Virus record (IMG/VR): IMGVR_UViG_3300046522_000748
Direction: 5' to 3' (one strand)
DNA length: 64,000 nt
DNA from: a virus
Taxonomy: Duplodnaviria; Heunggongvirae; Uroviricota; Caudoviricetes
Below the pieces are notes generated by a model that saw nothing but the letters and a program-made list of their open reading frames with translations, did not search any database and had not been told where the DNA came from. The first letter of the stretch is position 1, and each line of letters opens with the position of its first letter. This document shows positions 8,256 to 63,658 of the stretch, piece after piece. Position numbers and translations under genes: made by a program.

Positions 8256-8295
8256 ATTATACCAAAAAGCGCCACCCATGTCAATTGTGTTGACT
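8256..8295 (-). promoter_or_regulatory. sigma70 promoter with operator TGTCA-N7-TGACT (8279-8295)
   Basis: TTGACA-17-TATAAT. Confidence 0.75.
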
Positions 8296-8337
8296 TGAGT
8301 GGCGCTATTCAAGGTGCCTTTGTGGCAAGCTTGGCGA

Positions 8338-8901
8338 CTACAGCAGGCCTCGGAAGGTCAGGCTGATTCGCGGGCCGCAGGCAGCAGAGTGCTTGGGAAT
8401 GCGATGCAGATCCAGGTGCTGCATGCCAGCTGGCATTTCCAGCAAGCTGCCGGAGGCCAGACTGACCTTCACCACTTCAGCAGCTTCACCTTCGGGCACA
8501 CGAGGTGGCCTTGGCTTGAACCACAATTCGCGGACGGCGCCAAAGCTGTACACCAGGATCGGGCGCGAATGGTCGATGCTTGGGCTATCATCGGCGTGCC
8601 AGCCCAAGTGGTTATGCTGGTTTTCGTACCCATTGATGAACAGCGCTTCAAACTTGCAGCCGTACTGCGCCTCAGCTTGAGCCTGAATGCCCTTGCAGAT
8701 CTCATCCCACACCGGATTCGGGGTATACGTCCGTGCGTATGCGCCTTCACCATAGGTATACGGCTCACCCTTGTCGCTGAAGAAGACTTCTTTGCGCGGT
8801 GCTTCGCGCTGTTCCCATGGTAGATTTTTCCACAGGTGATCGAAGATCTCGGCGGCATTGGCAATCGCGTTGGGGGTGTAGATCGGCATCGTGGGCTTCA
8901 T
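8338..8901 (-). CDS. AlkB-family 2OG-Fe(II) dioxygenase
   Basis: GWHADD (HxD), distal H in LHRIPK, RISLTFR. Confidence 0.9.
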   Translation of the reverse strand: MKPTMPIYTPNAIANAAEIFDHLWKNLPWEQREAPRKEVFFSDKGEPYTYGEGAYARTYTPNPVWDEICKGIQAQAEAQYGCKFEALFINGYENQHNHLGWHADDSPSIDHSRPILVYSFGAVRELWFKPRPPRVPEGEAAEVVKVSLASGSLLEMPAGMQHLDLHRIPKHSAACGPRISLTFRGLL

Positions 8902-9101
8902 GTGTTCATTCCGTTTCTCGTGAGATTCCGTTTGTTGGAGTATCTGAGCGAGGATTATAGCAAGCCTGCGGCATTCGGTCAATGTCATTTACACTTCAAT
9001 ATTTTGTATTGGTGTACTTGCTGTTGGTCGAAATCATCAGTTCCGAATTTTGCCTTGACTGTCGCGCCAGCGCACCCAGCAGCACCGCTTGATACGTAGA
9101 T

Positions 9102-9275
9102 TCATAGCGAGATCACCCGATTAAGTAGCTCTTCAGTGACTTGGCTGTCCCGGTTCAATTTTCTCTGACGTTTATCGACTTCCAACATGCGTCGATCACG
9201 CTCTTCTTGACGTGCTGCACGCTCTTCAGGCGTAAGCTTCGCCCGAGCCTGCTCGATAAGATCTTCCAGTGTCAT
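9102..9275 (-). CDS. small helical hypothetical protein
   Basis: GGAGAG RBS; similar ends to 9354..9569 (MTLEDLI...TEELLNRV). Confidence 0.65.
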   Translation of the reverse strand: MTLEDLIEQARAKLTPEERAARQEERDRRMLEVDKRQRKLNRDSQVTEELLNRVISL

Positions 9276-9353
9276 GCTTCTCTCCCAGGCAATGGTTATT
9301 GTGTATCGATAAGTCAAAACGCCCACCGTGAAGTTCGGCGCATTAAAACCACA

Positions 9354-9569
9354 TCAAATGGTGCAGACTTTTCTCAGCAGCTCTGCCGTAGGCTGTTTAG
9401 CGGCAATCCGTTTCTCGCATTCAATGCTCCATTGGCGAATGCGTGCATAACTTTCTTCGCGGTTTTTTTCATTACGCAGAGTGATTTCGGCTGTTTCTTC
9501 CGGAGAAAGTTCACCGGCTTCGTACTTCTGCATTTTAATGGACAGATCGATCAGTGCTTTAAGGGACAT
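9354..9569 (-). CDS. small helical hypothetical protein, paralog of 9102..9275
   Basis: MSLKALI...TAELLRKV; AGGTG RBS. Confidence 0.65.
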   Translation of the reverse strand: MSLKALIDLSIKMQKYEAGELSPEETAEITLRNEKNREESYARIRQWSIECEKRIAAKQPTAELLRKVCTI

Positions 9570-9690
9570 GCTTCACCTATTAGTAGATGATCATTATATC
9601 GCTTATTGGGTGCTATTTAACAACAAAAGACCTGTGCCTGCTATTGCATGAAAAAGTCTATGGCGCCACACAGGGCGCCATATCGAGTGT

Positions 9691-10296
9691 TCAATGCTGG
9701 GATTTTAGATGGCCAGCCTTAACGATCTGGGTTTGCGCACCCTGTACGGCGGCATTCAGCTTCGTGGCTCGCTCCAGAGCCATTGCGGCTTGCGCTCTGA
9801 AAGCGTCCACGGCCAGCGTGCAGCCCGCCTCCAAGTCTTCTTCGTTGCATTGAAGCGAACACTCCGGCACAAAATCGCTGCCGCTCAACATCGGCTTGAG
9901 CAGTGCGTCGAATTTCACCCGGCTGCCATTGGTCTTTTCGTAGTGGTTGGCTATCTTCTTCACTTTCAGCGGCGTGACCTTAACTTGAAGGCATGTGGTA
10001 TTGCTTTCATGATCCTGTTCCATCCCAACGCGAATATGCAGCAGGGTATGGTCAAAACCCTTGGTCTTGAGATAGCCGGTCTCAACAACCACACGGGCTA
10101 GATGTAGCTGTTCGGGAGTCGCCACAAGGCGCTTCGAATCAACCATTCCGTTTCTCCAGCCGTGATAATAGCTGCGGCTTCGGTCGCTCCCAGGTTCGGC
10201 CTCCCCTTTGTATCCGGCCTGATACCCTTCCAGCATTTCAGCCTCATCGAGACTGGAAAGGTCTTCAATGGTTGCTGCGGATTGAAATTCGCTCAT
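9691..10296 (-). CDS. hypothetical protein with N-terminal Rmf-like motif
   Basis: EGYQAGYKG...SYYHGWRNG. Confidence 0.7.
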   Translation of the reverse strand: MSEFQSAATIEDLSSLDEAEMLEGYQAGYKGEAEPGSDRSRSYYHGWRNGMVDSKRLVATPEQLHLARVVVETGYLKTKGFDHTLLHIRVGMEQDHESNTTCLQVKVTPLKVKKIANHYEKTNGSRVKFDALLKPMLSGSDFVPECSLQCNEEDLEAGCTLAVDAFRAQAAMALERATKLNAAVQGAQTQIVKAGHLKSQH

Positions 10297-10349
10297 GTGT
10301 TGTCCCTCGCTGCGTTATCCGGCCAGTATCAGCCATTGATCTTGATCGA

Positions 10350-10718
10350 TCAAGTTGGGCCGATTGGAAGAAATCTTTTTTTCTTGTGGTCGTAACCAAT
10401 TTTTTTGTAAAAATCGAAAATAGTTCCGCTTTCCTCTATCAGCAACCCTGTGAATTGATTGTTGTACTCGGGGTTTGCTGCGCAATATTCATAAGTGCGT
10501 TGTGTATGCAATTCAAAGTGGAACGGCGCATCGTATGGGGCTGCTTTTCCAAACACTCGATTGGTTTCAAACTTGTCAAACGCCCAGGTGCTTACCTGAT
10601 GAACATATGAAAACTTTTCGTCCGATCCTGGGTTAACGATATGATGAAGCTTGATTGGCGCTTGCCGTTCAAACTCGACAATCCAATACTGAAACTTGTT
10701 GTTCAGCTCTGAATTCAC
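10350..10718 (-). CDS. hypothetical protein
   Basis: GTG start coupled to upstream stop. Confidence 0.6.
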   Translation of the reverse strand: MNSELNNKFQYWIVEFERQAPIKLHHIVNPGSDEKFSYVHQVSTWAFDKFETNRVFGKAAPYDAPFHFELHTQRTYEYCAANPEYNNQFTGLLIEESGTIFDFYKKIGYDHKKKRFLPIGPT

Positions 10719-11071: not shown

Positions 11072-11243
11072 GATCCTTCCCCTATTATTAATCGCTTATT
11101 ATATAATTCTTTTCGTCTTTTGCAACCATTTGTGTCGAATGATATGGGTTGCTGATCCTGCTTTTGCCACCAAATTTGTTTGTGTGATTGACACCATCTT
11201 CGGGCTTCGATATACTCGCTGAAACTCTCAAGGCTCTCTCATC

Positions 11244-12101
11244 ATGTCCGTATTTATCGCCAAAGACCTCGGCCTTCAAGTCGTCAGCAATCTCGATTTC
11301 ATGTCCCGTCCTGGCATCTACTGGAAATGGGGGAGTACCATTTTTTCTGGCCATAGCTTCGGCACGGCATTGGGGCCAAAGCACTGTTTTTTCCAGGCCG
11401 GTTTCCATGATTTCGCTCACTGCATTGACTTCATTATGCGTGGCAAGCAGGATCGTGTGACCAGCAGTGGCTTGAGTTTTCACACACCCTGGCAGTTCGT
11501 TAATCCTGTGTTTGGTCATATGGACGGCGAGCCTAAAACCTCGCAAATCACTCGCTGTGAAGCTCGGGTCTTTGCGCTTCAGGCCTACCTGATGAACAAG
11601 GAGATGGGGTTCATCATCGACTCACTGGATTACGACGATGAGGGAATTCTGCGTGAAGCAGGTAAATTGTCTCACCTGCGTGAGAAATCGCAGGAAGAGT
11701 CTATGGAATGGAGCCGCTCCTACTCGCTGATCCAGGCAGTTTCCATTGAGGAATACGCTCGGGACAAGGGTGAACTGGAATACATCAAATGGCAGGATTC
11801 AGAGGTGTTCCTTAGCGAATACGGTTTTGGCTATAAATCTGGTCTGAACTATAAGGAGCGCTCGGTCCGCTGGAAGGAGTGCTTCGTCAACTTGATTATC
11901 GAAGAATACAACCGTTTCCAAAACCCGTTTGTAGAAAAGCGTATCAGTCGCGCTGTTACAGCTCTGGGGGAGCGCCTGCGGCGTTTTCATAAGGCTCATG
12001 GTTTCGTGCCAACCGATGATCATTTCGGAATTCGCCACGCAGGTATCGAAACGCAGAAACCTGCCTCAACCACCATTGTTTTGGAGGCTTACAATGCCTG
12101 A
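11244..12101 (+). CDS. hypothetical protein with zincin-like HDxxH...E motif
   Basis: FHDFAHC...EARVFALQ; promoter TTGACA-17-TATACT at 11188-11216. Confidence 0.7.
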   Translation: MSVFIAKDLGLQVVSNLDFMSRPGIYWKWGSTIFSGHSFGTALGPKHCFFQAGFHDFAHCIDFIMRGKQDRVTSSGLSFHTPWQFVNPVFGHMDGEPKTSQITRCEARVFALQAYLMNKEMGFIIDSLDYDDEGILREAGKLSHLREKSQEESMEWSRSYSLIQAVSIEEYARDKGELEYIKWQDSEVFLSEYGFGYKSGLNYKERSVRWKECFVNLIIEEYNRFQNPFVEKRISRAVTALGERLRRFHKAHGFVPTDDHFGIRHAGIETQKPASTTIVLEAYNA

Positions 12102-12340: not shown

Positions 12341-12380
12341 TGTCAGTGTGATTGACACTGCATTCGTTTATCGCTATACT
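12341..12380 (+). promoter_or_regulatory. sigma70 promoter with perfect operator TGTCA-N7-TGACA (12341-12357)
   Basis: TTGACA-17-TATACT. Confidence 0.8.
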
Positions 12381-12414: not shown

Positions 12415-13065
12415 ATGGCTATTACTCGATTTGATTTTGATCGCACGGGTAGCGCTGAACGTTCGCATGGATATGGTGCTTGGCCAGAAGGCGCGTACTG
12501 TCCTGTTGGCAGCTCCAACCTTGTCAGCGAACGTGAGCAGCGCTGTGGCGCCCTGGTACTCTGGGATGAGTACGTCGGCCTGTGCCTGTCTGACTATGAG
12601 CGTAATGGCTACGATGACTCTGATTTCTTCATGGAGATCTGGAATCCTGAAGCCCAGGCCGTTGAGACCATTTTGTTTGCAACCACTCGTGGATGGACGT
12701 ACCCAAGCTATGGCAGTCGTCCAGACGCTACGCCTGAGGTGCGTGAGCTGGCTGCCCAATGGCGGGAACAACAGCGTCAGCTGGCTCTAAAGCAAGAGCG
12801 TAAGGCGCGTGCGGATCTGGTTCGTAAAAAGCGTGCGCTGCTGTGGGAGCTGGCCAAGCGTCACGGTTTTTCGTTCTCGCGTATTCGCAAGCTGACGCGC
12901 ACTGAGCCTGAGCCCCGTGCAGACGCTGTGGTGGCGCTGCTCAAAAGCCAGAAGTTGCGCTCCCCCTTCCGCATCAATATGCAAGATCAGTTGGTAAAAT
13001 GGCTGAAGGACAGCGCGCCGAAGTATCCATCGCCTTTCAGCTTCAAGCAGTGGGAATACGTTTAG
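12415..13065 (+). CDS. conserved mobile-element hypothetical protein
   Basis: ERNGYDDSDF..TTRGWTYP..DATPEV motif; AGGAG RBS; terminator at 13081-13105. Confidence 0.8.
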   Translation: MAITRFDFDRTGSAERSHGYGAWPEGAYCPVGSSNLVSEREQRCGALVLWDEYVGLCLSDYERNGYDDSDFFMEIWNPEAQAVETILFATTRGWTYPSYGSRPDATPEVRELAAQWREQQRQLALKQERKARADLVRKKRALLWELAKRHGFSFSRIRKLTRTEPEPRADAVVALLKSQKLRSPFRINMQDQLVKWLKDSAPKYPSPFSFKQWEYV

Positions 13066-16808: not shown

Positions 16809-17810
16809 TTACGATTTCAGTGCTTGAAGCGCCTCGTTCGTCACTCGAATGATCTCCAGCCGTTCAGGTGTTTCATCTTCCGGGTAGCAATCGACCCGCA
16901 GGGTCTGTTTGCGAAATTTGCCGCCGTAGCCGAGGTGCCCACCAAACCGCCATTCGTGGGTTGGGATTTTGCTGCACATATTGGAAACAAAGGCGTCTCT
17001 TCGGTCTTCAGGCGCACCGGCTTCTTCGACGAGCGCATCGTAGGCAATCTCAGCCTGACGGTAGCTCAGTGGCAACAGTCCATTGGCAGCGCCCAACTGC
17101 TCATCGGCAAACTGTTGTGCGACGTGAAGCACCTGCTGACAACGATCCAGGTTCAGCCAATCATGCTCATTTTCATCCATCTCTCGCAGGCTGCCTTCCA
17201 TGTCCACCCAGTGCGAAGAATTTGGTGCTACGAGCTTGATCGCTTCCAGTTGATCGGCGATGTTTTCGGCCCCCAGGCCACCGGCATAGCCGCAGGATAC
17301 CGGCAGGGGTGTCGGCCAGAAGTCAGGGCTAACGCCGCGTCCACCTGAAGCATCAAACAGCATGGCGTGGTTATCCAGTCCGCCCAGTGCTTCCCATAGC
17401 GAAGCATTGGCTTCGTTATGCTGCGTGATAAAGGTCAATTTGGGGTAAGTGGAGATCAAGTCCCGAAGGGCCTGAATGTCAATCGGCTTGCGCGCCTGAT
17501 TGAAGTTCAATTGAACGCGACCGCCTCGATGGTTCACTCGCACAAGCAGCTCGGTAACGACCGGCTCTTTCTCCAGCAGATCCGTAACGCCCTTTCCGCA
17601 TACGTGCATCGCAACGTTCACGTAAAACGGCAGTGAGCTGAACGCGCCGTTCAGAAACTCTACCGATGGGTAACGTCCAGGCTGGCCCTGAAGTTTCGGA
17701 GAATAGAGAAAGCCCCACTCTGCTGAACGATAGCGTGCCGAAAGATCAGTGATCCGGGGGAGATCAGAGTGTTCATCAACACCCGTCAATGTGCAGAGAG
17801 TCAGTCGCAT
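16809..17810 (-). CDS. phosphoribosylanthranilate-isomerase-like TIM-barrel protein with extra C-terminal domain
   Basis: TLTGVDE, EWGFL, LFDASGGRG, GYAGGLGAEN, WVDME; C-term EWRFGGHLGYGGKF. Confidence 0.75.
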   Translation of the reverse strand: MRLTLCTLTGVDEHSDLPRITDLSARYRSAEWGFLYSPKLQGQPGRYPSVEFLNGAFSSLPFYVNVAMHVCGKGVTDLLEKEPVVTELLVRVNHRGGRVQLNFNQARKPIDIQALRDLISTYPKLTFITQHNEANASLWEALGGLDNHAMLFDASGGRGVSPDFWPTPLPVSCGYAGGLGAENIADQLEAIKLVAPNSSHWVDMEGSLREMDENEHDWLNLDRCQQVLHVAQQFADEQLGAANGLLPLSYRQAEIAYDALVEEAGAPEDRRDAFVSNMCSKIPTHEWRFGGHLGYGGKFRKQTLRVDCYPEDETPERLEIIRVTNEALQALKS

Positions 17811-17823: not shown

Positions 17824-18132
17824 TTAAATGTTCATGTTGTAGCGTTGAATAACCACAACGTTTCGTTTGTTCTTGAAAATCAGCCGAGAAACCCCGCCGT
17901 TGAAGTGCCCGCAGCAATCATGCTCACAGTAGCAGGTTTGGCGAAAGTAATCGGCAAGGCTGCCTCGCAGAGTAAGGCGGGACGCGGAAAAGGAGGCAGG
18001 CAGTCGAATGTGGGTTACGATCACCTGACTTTCGCCATCGTCTTCCATGCGCATTCCACCAGGAATGGCTTTGACGGTGCCGATGAAATCCTCGGCATCG
18101 TCACTCGTGTAAAGATGAGCTTTATATGGCAT
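17824..18132 (-). CDS. hypothetical protein with CxCEHDCCG motif
   Basis: Cys/His cluster; AGGAGG RBS; promoter at 18160-18187. Confidence 0.75.
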   Translation of the reverse strand: MPYKAHLYTSDDAEDFIGTVKAIPGGMRMEDDGESQVIVTHIRLPASFSASRLTLRGSLADYFRQTCYCEHDCCGHFNGGVSRLIFKNKRNVVVIQRYNMNI

Positions 18133-18210
18133 TGCCTGCCTCCTTCTTCTGATGGAATCATTATACCGAAATCAACGCAATTGTCAATGTAAAAAACAAC
18201 GTAGACCGCA

Positions 18211-22095: not shown

Positions 22096-22611
22096 TCAGT
22101 GTGTAAACGTCAACTGAATTTCAATGTCTTTTATAGCCTGTTCGATGAACAGGAAGTCGCCCAGCGGCTTGGTTGTGGTGTGCTCGACGTACCGGCACAG
22201 CAGCTTCTGCTTGAATTGATCGCGCAGCCCTTCCCACTCCGGCGCCGAGTCAATTTTTGATAGCACGGAAATGCCGTCGAGGTATTTCAAGACCTCTTGA
22301 ACGATCCGTCCTTTATGGACATTTTCGAACAAATATTCGTGTAGGACGCAGATCTTTTGACCCTCTTGGTCTACCAGTTCCATGCTGAAGTCCGTGTCGA
22401 TGCAAAGTGTGGCGAGCGTGGGCTTGCCTTCGCTCACGGCTTTTTGGCGCAGCTCTGCCTCTTTGGTCTGCCGATAGCTGCAAGTCGAGCTATGCCCTTC
22501 CAGGCTCCCATTAATGGCCGGTTCAGAGTGGCCGCACTGGGTGCAACACTGATATGGGTTTCGTCCGCCGATGGGTGCTTTGGGGAAGTCATGGTAAGAA
22601 ATTGCATTCAT
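22096..22611 (-). CDS. hypothetical protein with N-terminal Zn-binding motif
   Basis: CTQCG...H..C; downstream of operator promoter 22721-22760. Confidence 0.7.
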   Translation of the reverse strand: MNAISYHDFPKAPIGGRNPYQCCTQCGHSEPAINGSLEGHSSTCSYRQTKEAELRQKAVSEGKPTLATLCIDTDFSMELVDQEGQKICVLHEYLFENVHKGRIVQEVLKYLDGISVLSKIDSAPEWEGLRDQFKQKLLCRYVEHTTTKPLGDFLFIEQAIKDIEIQLTFTH

Positions 22612-22743: not shown

Positions 22744-22760
22744 AGTCAATTACGCTGACC
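22744..22760. promoter_or_regulatory. operator AGTCA-N7-TGACC
   Basis: Overlaps -35 of minus-strand TTGACT-17-TATAAT. Confidence 0.6.
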
Positions 22761-22846
22761 TCGCCGCACCTCGCACACTGGCTGCCATCCACATTGACAA
22801 ATGCCTGTGTTTTGTTATGATACTCAAAATCAAGGAACTCGCAATT

Positions 22847-23962
22847 ATGACCAGTCGTATCATGCCGCTCCACCCAGCAGAAGGAACCTGTCAGCCGCAA
22901 ATCGAGCTGGTTCATCAGGTGATGCTGTGTGATGCCCGGCTATCAAACTGTCTGCCAGAGCAGACAATGAGGGCGCTGGGTGACATTGCGCAAATTGCCG
23001 GGGTTTACCACAGTAGTTTGATCGAGGGTTACGATGTCCAGCCGGAGGTGTTTCTCAACGCAATTGCTGCGGGTGAGGATACAGAGGTTGCTGAGGTTCG
23101 GTCACTCCATAAGGCGACCGTGGAATTGGCGAAGGCGGATCAATTTGGAATGCCCGCGTATTCGGCTGACTTTATCAAATCAGCCCACGGTCGGTTTTAC
23201 CGGCACGTCAATGAAGCGGTGGCGAACGAACTTATCCAGCAGCCAGGGGAATATCGTCGTCGCTTGGTATCGATTGGTAAGCACGTTCCTGTGGAGGATG
23301 AGGCAGTCCCGGCGATGATGGCCAAGTTGCAAGAGTCCTATCGATTCGCAGGGTCTAAGGCGCACAAAGTAATCAGTGTGCTTGGGCTTCATCACCGGTT
23401 GGCCTGGATTCACCCGTTTCTCGATGGAAACGGTCGGGTGTCGCGGATGGTGTTGCAGCTCGCTCTCCAGAACGAGGGGTTCAGTCGTGTGTGGTCGATT
23501 TCGCGGGGCCTATCACGCCTGCGTGATGACTATTACAAAGCGCTATCAGGTGCTGATCAGCCTCGCATGGGTGATCTCGATGGCCGGGGCAACCTCAGCA
23601 ACAAGCGGTACGTGGAGTTCATCAACTTCATGTTGCTCGTGTGTGGCGAGGAGATCCAGTATGCGCAAAACTGCCTGGATCGATCTCGATTGGCTGGCTG
23701 CATCGACGCTTATTTTCAGGATGCGTCGTTGCGCCCAGAGGGTGTGAGCGAAGACAGTCATCTCGCCTGGAAGGCGCTATTCTTTCAAGGGACGATGCCA
23801 AGGGGCGAATTCAAGCGCCTGATCCCTAAAGGTGATCGTACTGCCACGGGTCAAGTTGCTGCATTGGCGAAGGCTGGACTGGTGGTCACTAAAACCAGCC
23901 GTAGTGATCTGACGCCGAAGATTCCAATGCCATTGGCGCGGATGATCTTTCAGGATTTTTGA
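22847..23962 (+). CDS. Fic family protein
   Basis: HPFLDGNGRVSR catalytic motif; SSLIEG; promoter TTGACA..TATGAT at 22794-22821. Confidence 0.92.
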   Translation: MTSRIMPLHPAEGTCQPQIELVHQVMLCDARLSNCLPEQTMRALGDIAQIAGVYHSSLIEGYDVQPEVFLNAIAAGEDTEVAEVRSLHKATVELAKADQFGMPAYSADFIKSAHGRFYRHVNEAVANELIQQPGEYRRRLVSIGKHVPVEDEAVPAMMAKLQESYRFAGSKAHKVISVLGLHHRLAWIHPFLDGNGRVSRMVLQLALQNEGFSRVWSISRGLSRLRDDYYKALSGADQPRMGDLDGRGNLSNKRYVEFINFMLLVCGEEIQYAQNCLDRSRLAGCIDAYFQDASLRPEGVSEDSHLAWKALFFQGTMPRGEFKRLIPKGDRTATGQVAALAKAGLVVTKTSRSDLTPKIPMPLARMIFQDF

Positions 23963-29237: not shown

Positions 29238-29579
29238 TTAGTAATTGCTTAGAATGTCTGAATCATTCATATCTACATCGGGCAAATACTTCAGAAAGCG
29301 CAAGTGATTTATCCGAAACCAGACGCCAAAGTTAATCCATTCGCCGTCGCGGTCATACATTCGTAGTTCGCTGCTATAGGGCGGCTCATAGGAAATGAGT
29401 CCAATAGCCACACCTTGTGCAAAATGCAGCCCCGCTTCCTCGAACATGTCTTTGTAGCTGTAGAACTTGTCCCCATGGGCGCTGGCGATTCCGCCAGCAT
29501 CTTTAAGGCCGAGTTGGTCAAAGATGCTCTGAAGGTGCTTGTCGAGCCATTTGTAGTGGTTCACGTTTTGAGTGGGCAT
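29238..29579 (-). CDS. hypothetical protein
   Basis: AHGDKFYSY motif; promoter TTGACA-17-TATGAT at 29611-29639. Confidence 0.7.
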   Translation of the reverse strand: MPTQNVNHYKWLDKHLQSIFDQLGLKDAGGIASAHGDKFYSYKDMFEEAGLHFAQGVAIGLISYEPPYSSELRMYDRDGEWINFGVWFRINHLRFLKYLPDVDMNDSDILSNY

Positions 29580-29754
29580 GATGATCCATGAGCGCAAATA
29601 ATTTCGAGTAATCATACGGCATAAAGTAAAATGTGTCAATACAGAAAACACTCACCCAAAAGTGTAAGTGCGGCGCAGATAGTTTTTGTCATTGACAATT
29701 CACCTGCGGCTGACTACAATGGACGCATCTAAATCAGTCTCGTAGGGAACGTCG

Positions 29755-34165: not shown

Positions 34166-34182
34166 TGTCAATACCAGTGACA
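34166..34182. promoter_or_regulatory. operator TGTCA-N7-TGACA
   Basis: Perfect site over minus-strand -35. Confidence 0.75.
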
Positions 34183-36415: not shown

Positions 36416-36432
36416 TGTCAATCATAATGACA
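36416..36432. promoter_or_regulatory. operator TGTCA-N7-TGACA
   Basis: Perfect site; TTGACA-17-TATACT. Confidence 0.8.
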
Positions 36433-37278: not shown

Positions 37279-37295
37279 TGTCAACATGATTGACT
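37279..37295. promoter_or_regulatory. operator TGTCA-N7-TGACT
   Basis: TTGACA-17-TATAAT. Confidence 0.75.
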
Positions 37296-39745: not shown

Positions 39746-39762
39746 TGTCAATGCTGCTGACC
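39746..39762. promoter_or_regulatory. operator TGTCA-N7-TGACC
   Basis: TTGACA-17-TATAAT. Confidence 0.7.
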
Positions 39763-42296: not shown

Positions 42297-42313
42297 TGTC
42301 AATCAGAATGACA
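42297..42313. promoter_or_regulatory. operator TGTCA-N7-TGACA
   Basis: Perfect site; TTGACA-17-TAGAAT. Confidence 0.8.
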
Positions 42314-48703: not shown

Positions 48704-48731
48704 TTGACATCGTTGTTTCTGATAGTAAGAT
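48704..48731 (+). promoter_or_regulatory. tRNA promoter
   Basis: TTGACA-16-TAAGAT just upstream of the tRNA. Confidence 0.7.
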
Positions 48732-50175: not shown

Positions 50176-51009
50176 TTAAGCAAGCAACATAGTTTTTGAT
50201 TCTGTTGTTCTTTTTCTTGCATAGCGACCACGACCAGTGCGTTGAGTGCGAATCTGACAGATCTTGCGCACTTGCTCTTTCCAATTGGGGTTACCGGTCG
50301 GTCGTCGATCCGCCACGTATTCGTAAATTGCTGGCAAATCCGCCTCGCCCCCATAACTGTCGAGCGCTTCCAGTACCAGTTCCGCCCAACTTGAACGGCC
50401 ATTGATCAGTGCTTCCTGAACATCCTCCGGAAGCTGGCCGACAAAAGCCTGCTCATGAAACAGACTGAAGCCGACCAACAAACGTTTTTCGTCCTTGGTG
50501 AAGATCGCAAAACACAAAGGCTTCTCCAGTCCAGGGTAAATATTCCGGGGAATCATCTCCTGGTACAGACTCCATTGCTCGTTGTAGCGCGCTACTCGAC
50601 TGGCCGTTTGAAAGAAGTACGTTGGCAGGATCATGCCGATCTGACCTTCGGCGGCAAGCCAGTTAATCGCCTTCTCCAGAAAGGTGTCGAAGAGTGCTGT
50701 CTTGAAGGGCGGGTTGCCAATAAAAAGGGTTGGTCGCTCGGGCAGTACCGCATCGCGGATATCCGAGGTAATGATGAGTCGTCCAGTATTCTTTCTCGCC
50801 CGTTCAGCCTCTACTGGGTCGATTTCTATCCCCATAGCCGGTACGTGAGATGGAATCGCCTCAAGAAAGCGTCCAGGGCCACACATGGGCTCAACCACAA
50901 AGTCATTGCTGCCGAGGTGGCTGAAATGCCTTCTGACCAATGCTTCAGCGACCCATGCCGGGGTGAAATATTGATCCAATTGTCTGACTTTGGCGGTGAG
51001 AATTGTCAT
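50176..51009 (-). CDS. SAM-dependent amino-DNA methyltransferase (orphan) with C-terminal helical domain
   Basis: QYFTP, EPMCGPGRF, GIEID, GNPPF. Confidence 0.85.
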   Translation of the reverse strand: MTILTAKVRQLDQYFTPAWVAEALVRRHFSHLGSNDFVVEPMCGPGRFLEAIPSHVPAMGIEIDPVEAERARKNTGRLIITSDIRDAVLPERPTLFIGNPPFKTALFDTFLEKAINWLAAEGQIGMILPTYFFQTASRVARYNEQWSLYQEMIPRNIYPGLEKPLCFAIFTKDEKRLLVGFSLFHEQAFVGQLPEDVQEALINGRSSWAELVLEALDSYGGEADLPAIYEYVADRRPTGNPNWKEQVRKICQIRTQRTGRGRYARKRTTESKTMLLA

Positions 51010-51127
51010 GGTGTGGATTCCGCGATTCCCAAAAATAACAAAAGCGCCTTTAGCGCTCGATTGAGGTTAGTTTAACGAAACTTCGAGATTATGTCAATAT
51101 CAAAAACATGGTGATTATTAGTGCCAA

Positions 51128-51310
51128 TCAGTCTCCTCCATCTCCACCACCATCGCTGTCGCTGTCGCTGTCGGAATCATAAAAGCTGCTGGAGCCCGAT
51201 TGTTTATTGCTCGATGGGTCTGGTGCAACAGCAAAGAGAGCAAGGACCAATGAGACTAGTATTGCGAATATAATTATAGTGCTTATGAGATTTAAGTTGA
51301 TCATATTCAT
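51128..51310 (-). CDS. single-TM peptide with Ser/Asp/Gly tail
   Basis: Hydrophobic N-term, DSDSDSDSDGGGDGGD. Confidence 0.6.
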   Translation of the reverse strand: MNMINLNLISTIIIFAILVSLVLALFAVAPDPSSNKQSGSSSFYDSDSDSDSDGGGDGGD

Positions 51311-51747: not shown

Positions 51748-52005
51748 TTACTTAACGTCGGCGACCTTAAGTTGCGCTTGGTGGAATGCGCCCTGCGCTT
51801 CTGAAAAGCTCCCGCCTTCGTAAATGGTGTCGTAGCCCAGGGTTACCTTGTAGCCGCCACCGATAAAGACACCAAAAATGAGTCGAGATGTCACGCCTTT
51901 TTGTTTTGCGTGCGGAATTGAGATGGAGGCGTATTCAACCAGCTTGTTTTTGCTCCATTCTTCAAAATCGCCTTTCACAATTTCGTTCATCGTCGATATC
52001 TCCAT
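51748..52005 (-). CDS. hypothetical protein
   Basis: Operator promoter 52018-52057; terminator 51703-51737. Confidence 0.65.
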   Translation of the reverse strand: MEISTMNEIVKGDFEEWSKNKLVEYASISIPHAKQKGVTSRLIFGVFIGGGYKVTLGYDTIYEGGSFSEAQGAFHQAQLKVADVK

Positions 52006-52040: not shown

Positions 52041-52057
52041 TGTCAACATCAATGACA
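52041..52057. promoter_or_regulatory. operator TGTCA-N7-TGACA
   Basis: Perfect site; TTGACA-17-TAGAAT. Confidence 0.8.
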
Positions 52058-53966: not shown

Positions 53967-54308
53967 TCAGATGTCTTGACGCGAGCGTTCGCTGTCGTTG
54001 GCCAAGGCGCGGAAATCTTCCCACTTCATGGCAACGATGCGCTCAAAGAGTTCGACTTGTTCTTGGCTCGGGCCGAAATAACCTGAGTCCTGTTTGCCGA
54101 GGTTGTCAGTGACCACAAAGCCCCTGCGGTCGCCCTCGGGTTCTTTCAGGATGGCGACGCCGTTCATTTCAGACCCAATCAGACCCATCGCATTGTAGGC
54201 ACCGTACACCAGTACGCGGAATTTGCCATTTGGGCCGAAGTCCACAATCTTGTCAGAGGTGACCCCAACGAACTGGGCTACGGTAGGGTGGGTGCTGATA
54301 ACGGTCAT
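53967..54308 (-). CDS. conserved hypothetical protein
   Basis: VLVYGAYNAMGLIGSE.NG..SGYFGPS; operator promoter 54340-54379. Confidence 0.75.
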   Translation of the reverse strand: MTVISTHPTVAQFVGVTSDKIVDFGPNGKFRVLVYGAYNAMGLIGSEMNGVAILKEPEGDRRGFVVTDNLGKQDSGYFGPSQEQVELFERIVAMKWEDFRALANDSERSRQDI

Positions 54309-54362: not shown

Positions 54363-54379
54363 TGTCAATACAATTGACA
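54363..54379. promoter_or_regulatory. operator TGTCA-N7-TGACA
   Basis: Perfect site; TTGACA-17-TATAAT. Confidence 0.8.
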
Positions 54380-54380
54380 A

Positions 54381-55169
54381 TTAAGCGGCGTTTAGTGCCA
54401 AACCTCGCGCCACCACCTGTGCTTCAAAGCTTTCGAGCAGTTCAGTGGTCGAGGCAAGCTTGGTTTCAGGCCCGAAACCTACCAGGGTATTAGCTGCCAG
54501 TTCCAAAATCTTGGCGCGATGCTCGTGGTATGCGACGGTTTTGGCATCGTTCCAGTCTTCAAGAAATTGAATTTGCCCCATCACGCAGAGCACTGCTTGG
54601 CGAATGGGCTCGCCCAGCTCCATTGCTTCTTTGTCGGCAACTTTTCGGTGTTGATCCATTTCTGGATACAGGTACTGGCCTGCTTCAATGGCATCCAGAA
54701 CTTCGTCATCACACAGCATTTCGAAAAGATTTTTTTGTAGAGTCGAATGGGTCTCGCGCAATTGCAGAATCCACTCGGCGGTAGGGGTCAATGTCTCAAG
54801 ACGTTGACCGTAGAAGACTGCTGCATCACGCTTCTCATCAAACGTGGTGAAGGAGATGTGGAAGCCTCGGGCCTGAATCACTGCGCAGGCGGAATAGTCG
54901 CAGCATTCCGGGTAGGCGCGTTTGCTCGGTAGCATGGCCTGGATTTCAACCGACGTGCCTTGCAGGTGGTTGATCACCAGTTGATCATGGTTGTACGTCA
55001 GAACATGGATGACGCCATCTTCCAGGTAGGTGTGGATAGTGCCTGCGCCGTCGCAGTGATAGCCATAGATCAAGGTGCGAGAAATATGCGGATCGCGAAT
55101 GTCGGAAATCGAGAGGCAGGTCGGCTGGGCTTCCACGTGGCAAAGGTTTTCGTAGGCTTCTTTGTTCAT
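54381..55169 (-). CDS. hypothetical protein, paralog family with 55226..56044 and 59129..59500
   Basis: RTLIYGY..HTYLEDG..PSKRAYPECCD..C; operator promoter 55197-55236. Confidence 0.75.
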   Translation of the reverse strand: MNKEAYENLCHVEAQPTCLSISDIRDPHISRTLIYGYHCDGAGTIHTYLEDGVIHVLTYNHDQLVINHLQGTSVEIQAMLPSKRAYPECCDYSACAVIQARGFHISFTTFDEKRDAAVFYGQRLETLTPTAEWILQLRETHSTLQKNLFEMLCDDEVLDAIEAGQYLYPEMDQHRKVADKEAMELGEPIRQAVLCVMGQIQFLEDWNDAKTVAYHEHRAKILELAANTLVGFGPETKLASTTELLESFEAQVVARGLALNAA

Positions 55170-55219: not shown

Positions 55220-55236
55220 TGTCAATCACATTGACA
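55220..55236. promoter_or_regulatory. operator TGTCA-N7-TGACA
   Basis: Perfect site; TTGACA-17-TATACT. Confidence 0.8.
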
Positions 55237-56091: not shown

Positions 56092-56403
56092 CTAGTTGGC
56101 TGGGTTCGGGTAGTGACGCACAATGCTGGTCGGAATTGCATGCGCGATTCCGGAACTGGTTTGCATCCAGTGCTGAACGTCATAGCCCAGCTTGATGGCC
56201 TTGTTCACGGCATCTGGAAGCGAGTAGCAATCCTCGATGTTGACGAAATCAACATCGTTGTTCTCTTTCCTCAGGTGGATGTAGAACCCTTTGCCAGGAT
56301 TGCGTTTATTGAAGTCTGGATCATCGTCCATCACCAGCAGCATCTTTGGCAGATTCGCTGGCGGCGTTGCGTCGATGACTTTAAAATCGCTGGGCTTGGT
56401 CAT
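56092..56403 (-). CDS. hypothetical protein
   Basis: Operator promoter 56441-56480. Confidence 0.65.
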   Translation of the reverse strand: MTKPSDFKVIDATPPANLPKMLLVMDDDPDFNKRNPGKGFYIHLRKENNDVDFVNIEDCYSLPDAVNKAIKLGYDVQHWMQTSSGIAHAIPTSIVRHYPNPAN

Positions 56404-56463: not shown

Positions 56464-56480
56464 TGTCAATGCAAATGACA
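56464..56480. promoter_or_regulatory. operator TGTCA-N7-TGACA
   Basis: Perfect site; TTGACA-17-TATACT. Confidence 0.8.
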
Positions 56481-56587
56481 TTTTTCCGAGTATTATCTGT
56501 ACCTATAATGGAGGGTGTTTTTGTGTTTATGATATTGACATGATGACCTGATATCGCTATACTGGGCACATTCCAAAGGAGATCGTC

Positions 56588-57367
56588 ATGTCGTTCAAAC
56601 ACCTGACCCCTGCACACACAATCAAGATGCGCCAAGCGGTCGCTGAAATGAGCGGCATCATCGCTGTGGCTCAGACGATTAAAGATCCAGTGCTGTCGGC
56701 AAGCATCGTCAGTAAGACCCAGTACGCCATTGACGAGCTGAAGGCGCGTTACGCTGAAATCGAAAATGAAGACGGCACCGTGTTGGTCAAACACCCTGCC
56801 ATCGGTTACGTGACTGTCGATGAGGCCTTGTGCGAAGAGCCTGTGCGCCTGTTTGCCTCCAAAGTGCAGTCGCTGAGCACCAACCGGATTCGCCTGTACG
56901 GCGCCGACGCACTGGTTGGCGTTGACGGCAACGTCACCTACGTCAACCGCAAGTTGATCATTGATGTTGAAATGACTCAAATGGCGTTTGCGTCCCTGTT
57001 GGCCAATCCTGGCCGTGGCGAGTATGCCGCGACCATCCGTGAGTTGAATGGCGTGCCTGTCAGCTATGACGGCGACCTGAACAGCAAGCGCGGCAAACTG
57101 ATGTTCAATGAATCCCTGAATTCCACCGAAGGCATGGCTCAATGGGCTGTGAAGCTGGTCGAGCAAGCTCAAGAGGCTGCCAACAAGGGTGGTACTCTGA
57201 GCAAAGGGGCTCGCGCTGAGATGGACAAAAATGCGGAAGTCCTGAGTAGCTGGACAGAAAGCAACCCGGCGTTCTACGCCCAGCTTCTGGCTGACTTCAC
57301 CGCTTCGACGACCACTGACATGAAGATGGAAATCATGTCCGCCACCAAATTCATGGGGAAAAAATAA
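56588..57367 (+). CDS. hypothetical protein, first of a coupled pair
   Basis: AAGGAG RBS; promoter TTGACA-17-TATACT at 56535-56563. Confidence 0.8.
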   Translation: MSFKHLTPAHTIKMRQAVAEMSGIIAVAQTIKDPVLSASIVSKTQYAIDELKARYAEIENEDGTVLVKHPAIGYVTVDEALCEEPVRLFASKVQSLSTNRIRLYGADALVGVDGNVTYVNRKLIIDVEMTQMAFASLLANPGRGEYAATIRELNGVPVSYDGDLNSKRGKLMFNESLNSTEGMAQWAVKLVEQAQEAANKGGTLSKGARAEMDKNAEVLSSWTESNPAFYAQLLADFTASTTTDMKMEIMSATKFMGKK

Positions 57368-58284
57368 TGAGCCACTATTTCTCGATTCGTGATTTGGGTT
57401 TGACTCTTGAAGAGGCTCAAGCCCTGCGTGACTGCGCCATCGAGCGCCAGCCTGAGCTGGTCAAGGTGGTTGGCGAATACGCGCTCAAAGAGGAAGAGCG
57501 CACGCTGAAGGATTTGCGTAGTGCAGCGGAAGCCAACAAGATTCCCCATGAAAAGGTGGGTGAACTGCTGGCCATTCGCAACTTTTCTCGTGACAAGCTG
57601 ACGGCTGAACATATGACTCCGCTGATTTTCGAAGCGAAGTTCAATTCGGAGCACGGCGTGTTCACTGAACATGAAAGCTTTGGTTGCATGTCCAACCATT
57701 CGAGCACCAGCACGCACCCGACTTTCGTGGGCACCCCGACGCTGGACAGCAGCATGGTCAACTTGCGCTTTCACCGCGCTCAGTTGAGCTGCGACCGTTT
57801 TTCCAGTGAAGAACCTTCCATGGATTCGACTCGGGCGCTGGGTGAATTTGATTTGTCCGCTGATCAGTTCGCCGGTCTGATGCGTGAGCGCAACTCGGGC
57901 AGCCCTTGTGCCATCGGTCGTGACGGCTCGAAATTGCTGGACGCACCGCCGCGCATGATTTCCAGCGTGACCATCGCTGCCGAAACAAAGCTGAAGGCCA
58001 AGGCGATTGTTGCGCCATTGATGCAAGCGTGCAAAACCATGCGTGAACATTTGGCTGGCGCCGCGAAGATCAGTACCAAGGCCGATTATGCTTTGCTGAT
58101 TCAGCATGCGCTGAATGTTCAGGAGGCGATGGACTTGGTGCGCCCTCCCCTGCGCGCCCTGTTGGCTGAAACAGCAGGCCTGCTGGCGGAGTCTTCGACC
58201 AAGCAACTGATGTCGGAGATTGCCGAACCGCTCAAGGCCTTGGGGATGGACGCTGCTGAAGTGCTGCGCTTGATGAACCACTAA
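57367..58284 (+). CDS. hypothetical protein, second of a coupled pair
   Basis: TAATG overlap; EFDLSADQFAGLM..GSPC resembles DVEMTQMAFASLL of partner. Confidence 0.8.
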   Translation: MSHYFSIRDLGLTLEEAQALRDCAIERQPELVKVVGEYALKEEERTLKDLRSAAEANKIPHEKVGELLAIRNFSRDKLTAEHMTPLIFEAKFNSEHGVFTEHESFGCMSNHSSTSTHPTFVGTPTLDSSMVNLRFHRAQLSCDRFSSEEPSMDSTRALGEFDLSADQFAGLMRERNSGSPCAIGRDGSKLLDAPPRMISSVTIAAETKLKAKAIVAPLMQACKTMREHLAGAAKISTKADYALLIQHALNVQEAMDLVRPPLRALLAETAGLLAESSTKQLMSEIAEPLKALGMDAAEVLRLMNH

Positions 58285-58620: not shown

Positions 58621-59091
58621 ATGATTGCCACCTCGCTGAATACCGCACATGCCTTTTTGCTCCTCGCATCCACTGAGGGCATGAGGCTGACGAACCTGCG
58701 ATTGCAGCGTTTGGTGATCATTGCGCATGGCGCTCATCTCGCGGCGTACAATGAGCCGCTATTCAGGGAGCCGGTACTTGCCTGGGATTTTGGTCCTGTC
58801 GTTTCAGATCTCTATGATTCTTTGAGGCATTACGGATCTGGGTATGTCGATTGCGAGGGGCCAGGAGTGCATCAGTCCCTTCTGGCTCTGAATCATGGCG
58901 CAAGTCAGGCCATACGAGCCGCTTGGGAGGCCTACAAGGCTTACGATGAGTCGCGGCTTGGTCAGTGCCTAAAGGGTATCAAAAGTCCTTGGTACGGCGT
59001 CTGGAATGGTCGTGGCACACGCTATACGGTCATTTCGAACGAGCTGTTCAAAGAATACTACGCCAACAAGATCAGAAGGCTGGCCGCTTAA
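58621..59091 (+). CDS. Panacea (DUF4065/SocA/GepA) antitoxin-domain protein, orphan
   Basis: LTNLRLQRL..AHG..PLF.E...AWDFGPVV..LY, SPW. Confidence 0.85.
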   Translation: MIATSLNTAHAFLLLASTEGMRLTNLRLQRLVIIAHGAHLAAYNEPLFREPVLAWDFGPVVSDLYDSLRHYGSGYVDCEGPGVHQSLLALNHGASQAIRAAWEAYKAYDESRLGQCLKGIKSPWYGVWNGRGTRYTVISNELFKEYYANKIRRLAA

Positions 59092-60083: not shown

Positions 60084-60086
60084 GAC

Positions 60087-61571: not shown

Positions 61572-62105
61572 TTAGCCCTGGTGCTCGTAGCGGATTTCAC
61601 TTTGCCCGAGACGTTCGGTAGCGATGGTTTGGCCGTTCTCAAAAGCGACTAGTTCGGCTTTCACTAGCCAATCGCCTGAAATCAATGGCCGCAACTTCAA
61701 AAGTCGATTTTCATTCTTCAAGAGTGAAATGCCTTCTTCAAGAGACATCGTTGTGCATTCGTCAGGATCGGTAACGAGTTCATCGTCTTTATTGAAGGCG
61801 ACACTGAAAAACAACGTAAATCCGTAAGCAGTATCGACCATGAGGTAGCAAGTGCTATAAGCGACCTCTGGCTCGATGTTGATAGCGCAAGTCAACCGTT
61901 TGGCTTGCTCCAAGGTCATCGCCTTGTCGAATCCCGGTACTTCAGAACCATCTGCAAGTCGGAACAGTGCCCACGAATGAATGTCGGACACGCGACTCGG
62001 TGTGCCCAGGCAGTCACTCAAGATAGCCACTGGCTTTCCGTTTTGAAGCACGTGGAAGCTGGTCGTGATGGCTCTGTCTGACTTGAGTTGAATAAATTCG
62101 TACAT
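61572..62105 (-). CDS. paralog-array protein 1
   Basis: MYEFIQL..SFHVLQNGKPVAILS..TAYG..GDWLV. Confidence 0.75.
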   Translation of the reverse strand: MYEFIQLKSDRAITTSFHVLQNGKPVAILSDCLGTPSRVSDIHSWALFRLADGSEVPGFDKAMTLEQAKRLTCAINIEPEVAYSTCYLMVDTAYGFTLFFSVAFNKDDELVTDPDECTTMSLEEGISLLKNENRLLKLRPLISGDWLVKAELVAFENGQTIATERLGQSEIRYEHQG

Positions 62106-62154
62106 GCGCGGTTCCTTTGGTCTTTTCGAGCCATTACTGGCTATGACGGTGCCG

Positions 62155-62334: not shown

Positions 62335-62389
62335 TGTGCGCCCTGTGCCGTGCTGTAAATGAGAAAATCATACCCGCGACCACCTCCGC

Positions 62390-62406
62390 TGTCAATATTA
62401 TTGACA
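62390..62406. promoter_or_regulatory. operator TGTCA-N7-TGACA
   Basis: Perfect site; TTGACA-17-TATGAT. Confidence 0.8.
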
Positions 62407-62430
62407 AAAGCAAGGCGAGTAGATTTTGTG

Positions 62431-62724
62431 CTATTCGACAGGGATTTCTAGCAGCTCGGAGCCGAAGTCTACTAGGGTGTTGATGTGGTAGTCGATATTG
62501 AGCACCAGATCTGCCAAGCCGTAATTGAGGTCGGCTCCACAAAGATTCAATTGAAGCTCGTTGTCATGGCAGGTGCCTTGAGGATCGTCCTTTGCAGCTT
62601 GACGCAGAAGGGTCATTTGCTCCCGTGCTACTTGTACTGCTGTTTCTGCTGGATGAAGTCCAACAAAAAACATTTTGGTGAGAACGGTATCGGTCGCTTG
62701 GTCAATCAGTCGCTGACGGTTCAT
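62431..62724 (-). CDS. hypothetical protein
   Basis: Operator promoter 62756-62795. Confidence 0.65.
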   Translation of the reverse strand: MNRQRLIDQATDTVLTKMFFVGLHPAETAVQVAREQMTLLRQAAKDDPQGTCHDNELQLNLCGADLNYGLADLVLNIDYHINTLVDFGSELLEIPVE

Positions 62725-62778
62725 GCTCGGTAGCCTTTGCTTAAATAATGCTTAAAGTATAACAACAGCCTGAGCAAT

Positions 62779-62795
62779 TGTCAATTGCAGTGACA
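62779..62795. promoter_or_regulatory. operator TGTCA-N7-TGACA
   Basis: Perfect site; TTGACA-17-TATACT. Confidence 0.8.
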
Positions 62796-62796
62796 T

Positions 62797-63456
62797 TTAT
62801 CCGGCTTTTTTGTCAACTTCCTCAAGGACGGCTGGAAAAATGACTTCCCAGAAATGCTCCCAACCGGGGTTTACTTTTTGTACCATGGGAAGCGGTTCCT
62901 GATTTTTACCGGCGTGGTCTCGATAGGTGATCAGGTATTGCATGATCGAGGATGGTGCGGGCTCCCCTTCTGGGTTACTCATTTGAACCTTGCCTTCTGG
63001 TGTTACCGGGCTGGCCAAAAGAAACAGAAATTCTTCCTCAGTGAAATCGGTTGGAAATTCGTTTTCCAGTGCCTGGGTGATTCTGACGTGGGCTTCATCG
63101 GCATTCTCATCCAGTGCTGATGGATTTTCTTGAAAGAAGATGTAGGCCTGCGTCGTTTCCAGCCTGACGGCGTTAATACTGGAAACAAAGTCCAGGATTT
63201 CAAATTCACACTCCTCTTCAGCTTTTTCACGGAGGATGCTGTGAATTTTTTCATTAAATGAAAGTTGATGCTCGGTGGCCGTCCGCGCCCTGAAGTAGAA
63301 ATTCAACTTCAGAGATGGGGCACGTACATCCAGCGTCACGCAGTCAGTGTTTTCGGAGATATCGATATACGCGGCAACCGAATCTTTTTGGTATTTAATC
63401 GAAAGACGAGCGTATTTAGATACTTCAATGGTGGCGCTGGTGGTCATCACATTCAC
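62797..63456 (-). CDS. hypothetical protein
   Basis: 219-aa acidic ORF. Confidence 0.7.
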   Translation of the reverse strand: MNVMTTSATIEVSKYARLSIKYQKDSVAAYIDISENTDCVTLDVRAPSLKLNFYFRARTATEHQLSFNEKIHSILREKAEEECEFEILDFVSSINAVRLETTQAYIFFQENPSALDENADEAHVRITQALENEFPTDFTEEEFLFLLASPVTPEGKVQMSNPEGEPAPSSIMQYLITYRDHAGKNQEPLPMVQKVNPGWEHFWEVIFPAVLEEVDKKAG

Positions 63457-63483
63457 TCTGATTATTAGTAGGTGGTGTTTTTT

Positions 63484-63591
63484 CTATTTGGCCGGGCTAA
63501 TACACGTGTTTTCCAGGCGAGCAAAAGCGGCATCCACTGAAGATTGCATCAGAGCACTGAGGTCGATGATGGGCAAACCGTTTCCAGACAT
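63484..63591 (-). CDS. 35-aa ORF
   Basis: First ORF after operator promoter 63619-63658. Confidence 0.35.
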   Translation of the reverse strand: MSGNGLPIIDLSALMQSSVDAAFARLENTCISPAK

Positions 63592-63641
63592 GGCTTTTAC
63601 TCGATATTTAATGATGGAAGTATAATGATCTCAATCCTTTT

Positions 63642-63658
63642 TGTCAACCACAATGACT
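63642..63658. promoter_or_regulatory. operator TGTCA-N7-TGACT
   Basis: TTGACA-17-TATACT. Confidence 0.75.

Follow-up and report, generated by a model that had tools for sequence, protein, structure and literature searches.

A candidate operator embedded in the -35 box of strong promoters on a putative megaplasmid from soil metagenomes

Plasmid-borne repressors acting on strong sigma-70 promoters are known from the ArdK regulon of the IncW plasmid R388 and from the ArdK/CUP system of the IncN plasmid pKM101. In R388, ArdK represses five strong promoters through operators with (A)TTGACA arms, and in the Pssb operator, GTATTGACACCTATTGACA, the second arm is at the same time the -35 box (PMC9723621). 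The helix-turn-helix (HTH) of ArdK is structurally most similar to that of a sigma factor (region 4), and the protein also represses engineered operators with an inverted upstream arm, best at a gap of 3 bp (PMC9723621). This inversion is tolerated because the sequence TGxCA reads nearly alike on both strands. Across the KorA/ArdK family, operators occur as direct and as inverted repeats, and their gaps differ in length (PMC9723621). The strong and tightly repressed promoters of R388 give rise to a transcriptional overshoot after conjugation (PMC3937220). Here we investigated a 17-bp inverted repeat that overlaps the -35 box of many promoters in a DNA stretch of 64,000 nt deposited as a tailed-phage record (Caudoviricetes; IMG/VR record IMGVR_UViG_3300046522_000748; the whole stretch, from here: the window). 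We suggest that this repeat is an operator and that the window is part of a giant plasmid.

Other regulatory systems share single aspects with this arrangement. In the IncP-1 plasmids RK2 and RP4, a few plasmid repressors, KorA, KorB and TrbA, control most of the strong backbone promoters via shared palindromic operators. There are about a dozen KorB operators, located at varied distances. Palindromes over the -35 region are also bound by activators of the CRP/FNR class II type, which recognize the 16-bp sequence TGTGA-N6-TCACA or the 14-bp sequence TTGAT-N4-ATCAA centred at -41.5, in promoters with poor -35 boxes. The KorA operators are located on the -10 box (PMC9723621). In Bacillus subtilis, the TnrA/GlnR box TGTNANAWWWTNTNACA follows the 17-bp pattern TGTNA-N7-TNACA (PMC4475385).

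A 17-bp dyad in fixed register with the -35 box

All dyad and promoter counts for the element refer to this one window of 64 kb. The first-pass annotation, made from the sequence alone, had reported ten perfect copies of TGTCA-N7-TGACA, five copies with a substituted outer base and several weaker variants. Every one of these sites was recovered (Table 1), the weaker variants consisting of five sites with a TGTTT arm, one with TGCCA and two with nGTAA (29214 and 47023). Against these ten exact sites, dinucleotide-shuffled sequences averaged 0.09 and did not exceed 2, with none of 100 shuffles reaching ten. When the offsets between TGTCA and TGACA were counted on both strands from -40 to +40, the N7 spacing obtained 20 strand-counts and no other offset more than 2, while direct TGACA repeats were not enriched at any offset in the window.

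Each main site, read in the sense of transcription, is built of a distal arm, six bases, TTGACA, a spacer of 17 nt (16–18) and a TATAAT-like hexamer. The annotated overlap with the -35 box holds for 15 of the 15 main sites, each of which has its proximal arm within TTGAC(A/T); a (T/C)ANNNT hexamer comes after a further 17 nt (18 nt at 34166). A separate promoter scan scored the main dyad sites at 11–12 of 12 consensus matches. At a threshold of at least 10 of 12 matches, there are 39 promoters in the window compared to 7.0 (maximum 14) in first-order Markov simulations. Nearly all of these strong promoters are intergenic, with a start codon and Shine-Dalgarno sequence 17–60 nt downstream. A distal arm at exactly -46 to -42 is present in 20 of the 39, in the form of TGTCA (10), nGTCA (5) or TGTTT (5), and five further promoters carry nGTAA or nGTTT at this position. 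Together, G at -45 and T at -44 occur in 25/39 strong promoters, against approximately 2.4 expected. Within the dyad class (n = 20), the -35 hexamer is TTGACA in 19 and the spacer measures 17 nt in 18 instances.

The consensus of the dyad is TGTCAnT-N3-AnTGACA, spanning -46 to -30 with its centre at -38. The annotation had described the seven central nucleotides as constant in length and variable in sequence. The constant length was supported, since only N7 is enriched, but the sequence is not freely variable: T occurs at -40 in 16/20 and A at -36 in 17/20 dyad promoters. These two positions mirror each other about -38, and neither was used to define the class. Because A at -36 is also frequent in the strong promoters without a distal arm (12/19), only T at -40 is clearly class-specific. 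The extended dyad occurs in nine copies in the window. In the dyad promoters, position -41, where a divergent -35 hexamer would have its first T, carries no information, while T at -40 mirrors A at -36; selection therefore acts on the half-site AnTGACA rather than on a second -35 box. On the distal side, 0/20 dyad sites have a -10-like hexamer, compared to a background of 4%. Duplication of one cassette as the source of the sites was ruled out: the flanks (-65 to -47) and the spacers carry 0.0–0.2 bit, hence the sites are independent and not cassette copies.

The arm is not a general feature of strong promoters in the window. As annotated, the promoters of the tRNA and of a putative non-coding RNA lack the second half-site, the arm being absent at 48704 (tRNA-Met) and at 3115, in front of a gene-free stretch. 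The strong promoters of the MCP gene (19166) and of its divergent neighbour (19095), as well as those at 6113, 24553, 25661, 33766 and 48896, are also without it, and the promoter of a SohB-like protease gene (47028) has a weak nGTAA arm only.

We consider it probable, at roughly 0.6, that the dyad serves as operator for a sequence-specific DNA-binding protein that acts as a dimer and would shut down near-maximal promoters; its gene most likely lies outside the window on the same giant plasmid. The operator interpretation is supported by the fixed-register palindrome, by its symmetry beyond the sigma contacts, by consensus promoters (TTGACA-17-TATAMT) that are independent of an activator and by the lack of a divergent -10 hexamer. 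To this extent the proposal of the annotation, an operator placed on the -35 box, is supported, whereas we infer a repressing action of the binder, its origin from the plasmid, differing affinities of the arm variants and a burst of expression after transfer. In the mechanism envisaged, the promoter's own -35 hexamer would serve as the proximal half-site, and the bound dimer would cover the surface needed by region 4 of sigma-70 together with the proximal position of the C-terminal domain of the RNA polymerase alpha subunit, turning the promoter off. The quality of the distal arm may grade the sites, from TGTCA over nGTCA to TGTTT or nGTAA, so that repression would be tiered. This control would take in about half of the window's strong promoters, and with them most likely dozens of genes without known function, with the tRNA, non-coding RNA, MCP and other promoters outside the set. 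By analogy to R388, newly transferred DNA would meet a cell without the repressor, and the dyad promoters would fire in a burst.

The annotation had pointed to ArdK/CUP as an analogy, and the similarity is closer than it claimed, as the arms of the R388 ArdK operators are TTGACA and one arm is the -35 box (PMC9723621). The arm ATTGACA of the window is that of the R388 Pssb operator, and the -35 hexamer is the proximal arm in 20/20 dyad promoters. The natural ArdK operators differ, being direct repeats with a 4-bp gap (3–6 bp in the subfamily) and TGxCA arms 10 bp apart, whereas the dyad is inverted, with a 5-bp gap between the hexamers and arms 12 bp apart; this is the topology of the engineered inverted ArdK operator. 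The number of promoters differs as well, with five ArdK promoters in R388 compared to 20 dyad promoters in 64 kb here. By analogy, the dyad may work like an ArdK operator. We do not claim membership of its binder in the KorA/ArdK family because there is no direct repeat, there is no KORA gene in the window, and the KORA-type genes of its relatives are not linked to dyads.

Similarity to the IncP-1 system is restricted to the principle of shared operators: its operator sequences are unrelated to TTGACA arms, and the dyad is located at -46 to -30 and not, as in the KorA subfamily, on the -10 box. With the TnrA/GlnR box, the dyad shares the 17-bp interrupted inverted repeat, the outer arms TGTNA and TNACA and the 7-nt gap. 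The TnrA/GlnR box has A7/T11 and an A/T-rich centre, compared to T7 (16/20) and A11 (17/20) and a centre that is not restricted to A/T in the dyad; moreover, it belongs to a Firmicute nitrogen regulon under a cellular MerR-type factor, with sites not locked to the -35 register. The class II sites of CRP/FNR also lie over the -35 region, but the dyad differs from them by its 7-nt gap, its centre at -38 and the consensus -35 boxes.

Relatives of the element and their own dyad

Megablast of the window against phage and plasmid collections gave no match. A sensitive search combined with tblastn of the operon 56588–58284 matched only three plasmids among 72,556 records, all of them Pseudomonas plasmids of about 1 Mb: the plasmid of Pseudomonas sp. 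FeN3W (CP136011.1, 910 kb), pPL1 of P. silesiensis (NZ_CP143488.1, 1.17 Mb) and pMPPla107 (972 kb). The amino acid identities of the orthologues are 54% and 46% in the FeN3W plasmid, 28% (259-aa gene) and 27% (305-aa gene) in pMPPla107 and 26% (305-aa gene) in pPL1. Because this operon has orthologues only in those Pseudomonas plasmids, the window is, judged by its sequence, a distant relative of the pMPPla107 megaplasmid family. Typical for this family are a size of about 1 Mb, I-type conjugation genes, many tRNA genes and a G+C content below that of the host; the window has a PilI-family match, one tRNA and a G+C content of 45–53%.

The dyad of the window is not used by these plasmids. TGTCA-N7-TGACA occurs in 3, 2 and 3 copies in the FeN3W plasmid, pPL1 and pMPPla107, respectively, which is the chance level, and TGTCAA-N5-TTGACA is absent from all three. 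A different dyad, TTGACA-N3-TGTCAA, was found in 10 copies in the FeN3W plasmid, 13 in pPL1 and 2 in pMPPla107, where about 0.06 are expected and other spacings occur 0–2 times; no copy exists in the 64-kb window. That the relatives are at chance level for the window dyad and carry another one speaks in favour of a factor specific to the element. The left arm of the N3 dyad in the FeN3W plasmid and pPL1 is mostly the -35 box of a good promoter, and its partner lies in the spacer at -26 to -21. As in the window, this arm is preceded by A, one arm is the -35 box, and the sites are dispersed over many consensus promoters within the same plasmid family. The N3 dyads differ in that the partner is located downstream of the -35 box (dyad at -35 to -21) and that the arms, 8 bp apart, have their relative orientation reversed. 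For one pair of orthologous genes, the N3 dyad is conserved between the FeN3W plasmid and pPL1, and the first genes behind N3 dyads in these two plasmids have no homologues in the window.

The two-gene operon 56588–58284, coding for proteins of 259 and 305 aa without assigned function, is conserved across the megaplasmid family, and its control element differs by lineage. Its promoter has a TGTTT-type upstream arm in the window; in the FeN3W plasmid, an N3 dyad is placed directly against the -10 box, and neither of these is present in pPL1 and pMPPla107.

DNA of the window is present in rhizosphere and soil metagenomes, and one of four sequencing runs contained a relative with about 90–95% identity. 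In this relative, 67 other nucleotides stand in place of 51082–51165, the stretch with the TGTTT-type dyad at 51092, a difference that hints at turnover of promoter regions between close relatives. The window itself is absent from viral_contigs, and a first metagenome scan for relatives and a scan of viral_contigs with protein alignment gave no match. One 942-kb contig similar to pMPPla107 was detected in a metagenome scan, with neither dyad in the part searched. The combined promoter-plus-operator pattern was also searched in viral_contigs and genome_contigs; among the matches listed, which were unranked, sites were single and came mostly from Clostridia or phages, and there was no carrier of many sites. 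A different use of the same 17-mer was seen at at least nine loci on low-G+C phage contigs, where perfectly symmetric divergent promoters have their -35 boxes back to back as TGTCAA-N5-TTGACA and one 17-mer serves two promoters.

Across an even sample of 401 genomes from one gammaproteobacterial order, which may not be that of the host, the extended dyad occurs 0–4 times per genome, except for one genome with nine copies, all in a tandem repeat. The density in the window is about 200-fold above that of these genomes. Given 0–4 dyads per genome, no chromosomal regulon with the box of the window is visible in that order.

The binding protein and alternative interpretations

As the annotation had noted, no regulator gene is recognizable among the 100 proteins of the window by Pfam or phmmer. 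Several findings weigh against the interpretation as a plasmid-encoded operator system. No clear HTH was detected by Pfam among the 100 window proteins, about 80 of which were run individually, and there is no candidate repressor gene; phmmer with a KorA-like query and with a sigma factor query matched no window protein. None of the first genes behind a dyad resembles a gene for a DNA-binding protein, so autoregulation is not visible within the window. The FeN3W plasmid, with its ten N3 dyads, has no Pfam-detectable KorA gene. Finally, the arms are 12 bp apart and not 10 as in the ArdK operators, and the binder may thus belong to another family.

Pfam KORA (PF16509) had no match among the 100 proteins of the window, which is 64 kb of a much larger element, and the same applies to the MerR families. 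HTH-type Pfam matches are restricted to a sub-threshold FeoC-like match in 42936–43553 and one HTH_72 match not assigned to a protein. A search in the ESM Atlas returned nothing for two candidate proteins of the window. Among the relatives, the FeN3W plasmid has a weak KORA match only, within region 4 of a sigma-70-family factor, and pMPPla107 has none. pPL1 encodes, in an open frame of 202 aa (~173,300–173,700), a protein that combines two TrfB/KorA-like HTH domains in tandem, and it has a separate 75-aa single-domain copy. These proteins were considered as binders of the N3 dyad, which is not supported as there is no dyad beside their genes.

A positive factor at the dyad, either an activator of the class II type or a protein appropriating sigma, is an unlikely alternative. 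Bound at -38, it would touch region 4 of sigma and time a class of genes as in phage middle or late promoters. Sigma region 4 is contacted from this site by class II activators and by lambda cI at PRM; the element has phage-like features in its many ORFans, tRNA genes and single-gene units; and the FeN3W plasmid encodes a sigma-70-family factor of its own, a 276-aa protein whose gene (~850,000) is located behind a TTGACG-N3-TGTCAA dyad. However, activator-dependent promoters normally have poor -35 boxes, whereas here the -35 box, spacer and -10 box are all near consensus (TTGACA in 19/20, 17-nt spacer in 18/20). In addition, the proximal arm coincides with the -35 hexamer, which would set such a factor in competition with sigma region 4 over these bases.

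It is also rather improbable that a host chromosomal regulator binds the dyad and that the plasmid genes are plugged into a host signal. The lack of a regulator gene in the window would be accounted for, and the TnrA/GlnR box of Bacillus, with its 17-bp TGTNA-N7-TNACA geometry, illustrates that such cellular regulators exist (PMC4475385). Against it stand the related Pseudomonas megaplasmids, which have the window dyad at chance level (2–3 per ~1 Mb) and use another one, and the 0–4 extended dyads per genome in the 401 genomes, an argument that only weakens this explanation as the order sampled may not be that of the host.

Bipartite symmetric targets with a gap of 6–8 nt are typical for type I-like specificity subunits. 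The dyad would fit such a target, and a methyltransferase-like protein is encoded behind one of the variant dyads; methylation of the -35 region could then set promoter strength, and unmethylated or hemimethylated incoming DNA would behave differently. This explanation appears very improbable. The gradual decay of the half-site from TGTCA over nGTCA and TGTTT to nGTAA is better suited to graded protein affinity, T(-40) and A(-36) are symmetric and the -35 register is strict, as for a transcription factor dimer, and no type I-like specificity subunit was seen in the window.

The distal arm could instead be another -35 box, standing back to back with the first as a remnant or working part of divergent promoters without a dedicated binder. 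Such an arrangement exists at many Firmicute phage loci among the matches listed, which share TGTCAA-N5-TTGACA between two perfect divergent promoters. For the dyad it is very improbable given the missing distal -10 hexamers, the uninformative position -41 and the separate -35 boxes, 45–70 bp apart, of the real divergent pairs in the window (22749/22794, 29639/29692, 42302/42350 and 56469/56535).

Downstream genes and implications

The first genes behind the 20 dyad promoters are small, in agreement with the annotation, which had described them as small unknown genes. Their products of 35–285 aa are mostly acidic and without a Pfam family at E ≤ 0.01, the sole exception being the weak methylase-like match of gene 50176–51009. 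The proteome of the window is acidic in general, with a median isoelectric point (pI) of 5.6 and 61 of 100 proteins below pI 6. Pfam matches were obtained for about 15 of the 100 proteins, leaving about 85% without any family; those matched comprise MCP, HipA, Fic, SohB, LPD11, ART-PolyVal, 2OG oxygenase, phosphatases, PilI, SocA and DUF2726. The annotation had suggested that the dyad genes are anti-defence or host-takeover factors; for such a role, the methyltransferase-like gene and the generally acidic proteome are the only hints.

Genes of the defence or toxin-antitoxin type are present in the window, namely for a HipA-like kinase (32084–33409, minus strand), a Fic/SoFic-like protein (22847–23962, plus strand) and a likely SocA/Panacea-type antitoxin. 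The latter may, as a guess, correspond to 58621–59091 (plus strand), as the Pfam match was not tied to a particular protein. The very basic 40-aa open reading frame (ORF) 42116–42238 on the minus strand (pI 10.5) is located directly behind the perfect-dyad promoter at 42302 and has a good ribosome-binding site.

Table 1. Dyad sites, variants and arm-less control promoters in the window, with the genes downstream
Site	Position	Strand	Promoter	Downstream
Perfect dyad	12341..12357	+	TTGACA-17-TATACT	First gene 12415-13065, 216 aa, without Pfam match
Perfect dyad	34166..34182	-	TTGACA-18-CATAAT	First gene 33784-34101, 105 aa, pI 4.1
Perfect dyad	36416..36432	-	TTGACA-17-TATACT	Operon head, starting with 35932-36351, 139 aa
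Perfect dyad	42297..42313	-	TTGACA-17-TAGAAT	40-aa basic ORF 42116-42238, then 41818-42051, 77 aa
Perfect dyad	52041..52057	-	TTGACA-17-TAGAAT	First gene 51748-51990, 80 aa
Perfect 7+7 dyad, TGTCAAT-ACA-ATTGACA	54363..54379	-	12/12 consensus matches	First gene 53967-54308, 113 aa, acidic
Perfect 7+7 dyad	55220..55236	-	TTGACA-17-TATACT	First gene 54381-55169, 262 aa
Perfect dyad	56464..56480	-	TTGACA-17-TATACT; divergent from promoter 56535	First gene 56092-56403, 103 aa
Perfect 7+7 dyad	62390..62406	-	TTGACA-17-TATGAT	Long leader or 59-aa ORF, then 61572-62105, 177 aa
Perfect dyad	62779..62795	-	TTGACA-17-TATACT	First gene 62431-62724, 97 aa
Dyad, distal arm AGTCA	8279..8295	-	12/12 consensus matches	First gene 8019-8225, 68 aa
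Dyad, distal arm GGTCA	22744..22760	-	-35 box TTGACT	First gene 22096-22611, 171 aa
Dyad, distal arm AGTCA	37279..37295	-	12/12 consensus matches	First gene 36486-37226, 246 aa
Dyad, distal arm GGTCA	39746..39762	-	12/12 consensus matches	Genes 39405-39680, 39156-39392
Dyad, distal arm AGTCA	63642..63658	-	TTGACA-17-TATACT	
Variant, distal arm TGTTT	11177..11193	+		First gene 11244-12101, 285 aa
Variant, distal arm TGTTT	18182..18198	-		Genes 17824-18132, 16809-17810
Variant, distal arm TGTTT	29634..29650	-		First gene 29238-29579, 113 aa
Variant, distal arm TGTTT	51092..51108	-		First gene 50176-51009, 277 aa, methyltransferase-like
Variant, distal arm TGTTT	56524..56540	+		Operon 56588-57367 / 57367-58284, conserved in Pseudomonas megaplasmids
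Weak variant, distal arm TGCCA	22783..22799	+		Fic-domain gene 22847-23962
Control without distal arm (ACTGA at its position)	48704..48731	+	TTGACA-16-TAAGAT, strong	tRNA-Met
Control without distal arm (AGCTT at its position)	3087..3115	-	TTGACA-17-TATATT, strong	Gene-free stretch

A plasmid repressor with the -35 box as one operator arm is already known from ArdK of R388. We found no paper on the motif TGTCA-N7-TGACA, nor any earlier description of the N3 dyads of the cultured megaplasmids. The paper on the pMPPla107 family does not mention promoters or regulators, and no published work on the transcriptional control of these megaplasmids is known to us.

As a tentative and rather doubtful generalization, megaplasmids of about 1 Mb could place several hundred near-consensus promoters under one switch, with a single small regulator reading the -35 hexamer as a half-site. 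The geometry of the operator would be re-wired in each lineage, with an inverted arm 12 bp upstream in the element described here, a downstream arm at 8 bp in pPL1 and the FeN3W plasmid, and few such operators, if any, in pMPPla107. The result would be a private, "immunity-like" control of the ORFan cargo, with a burst of expression on entry.

For new hosts, acquiring a megaplasmid of the pMPPla107 type is markedly costly (PMC4105467, PMC8544880); such plasmids carry about a thousand mostly unknown genes. If the operator interpretation is true, no plasmid-borne regulon described so far would come close in size to the one formed by half of the strong promoters through a single operator in their -35 box. 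Such a regulon would account for the silencing of the cargo and mark a co-regulated class of unknown genes, which are perhaps expressed on entry into a new host. The presence of a second operator geometry in two cultured Pseudomonas megaplasmids makes this idea accessible to bench work without cultivation of the soil element.

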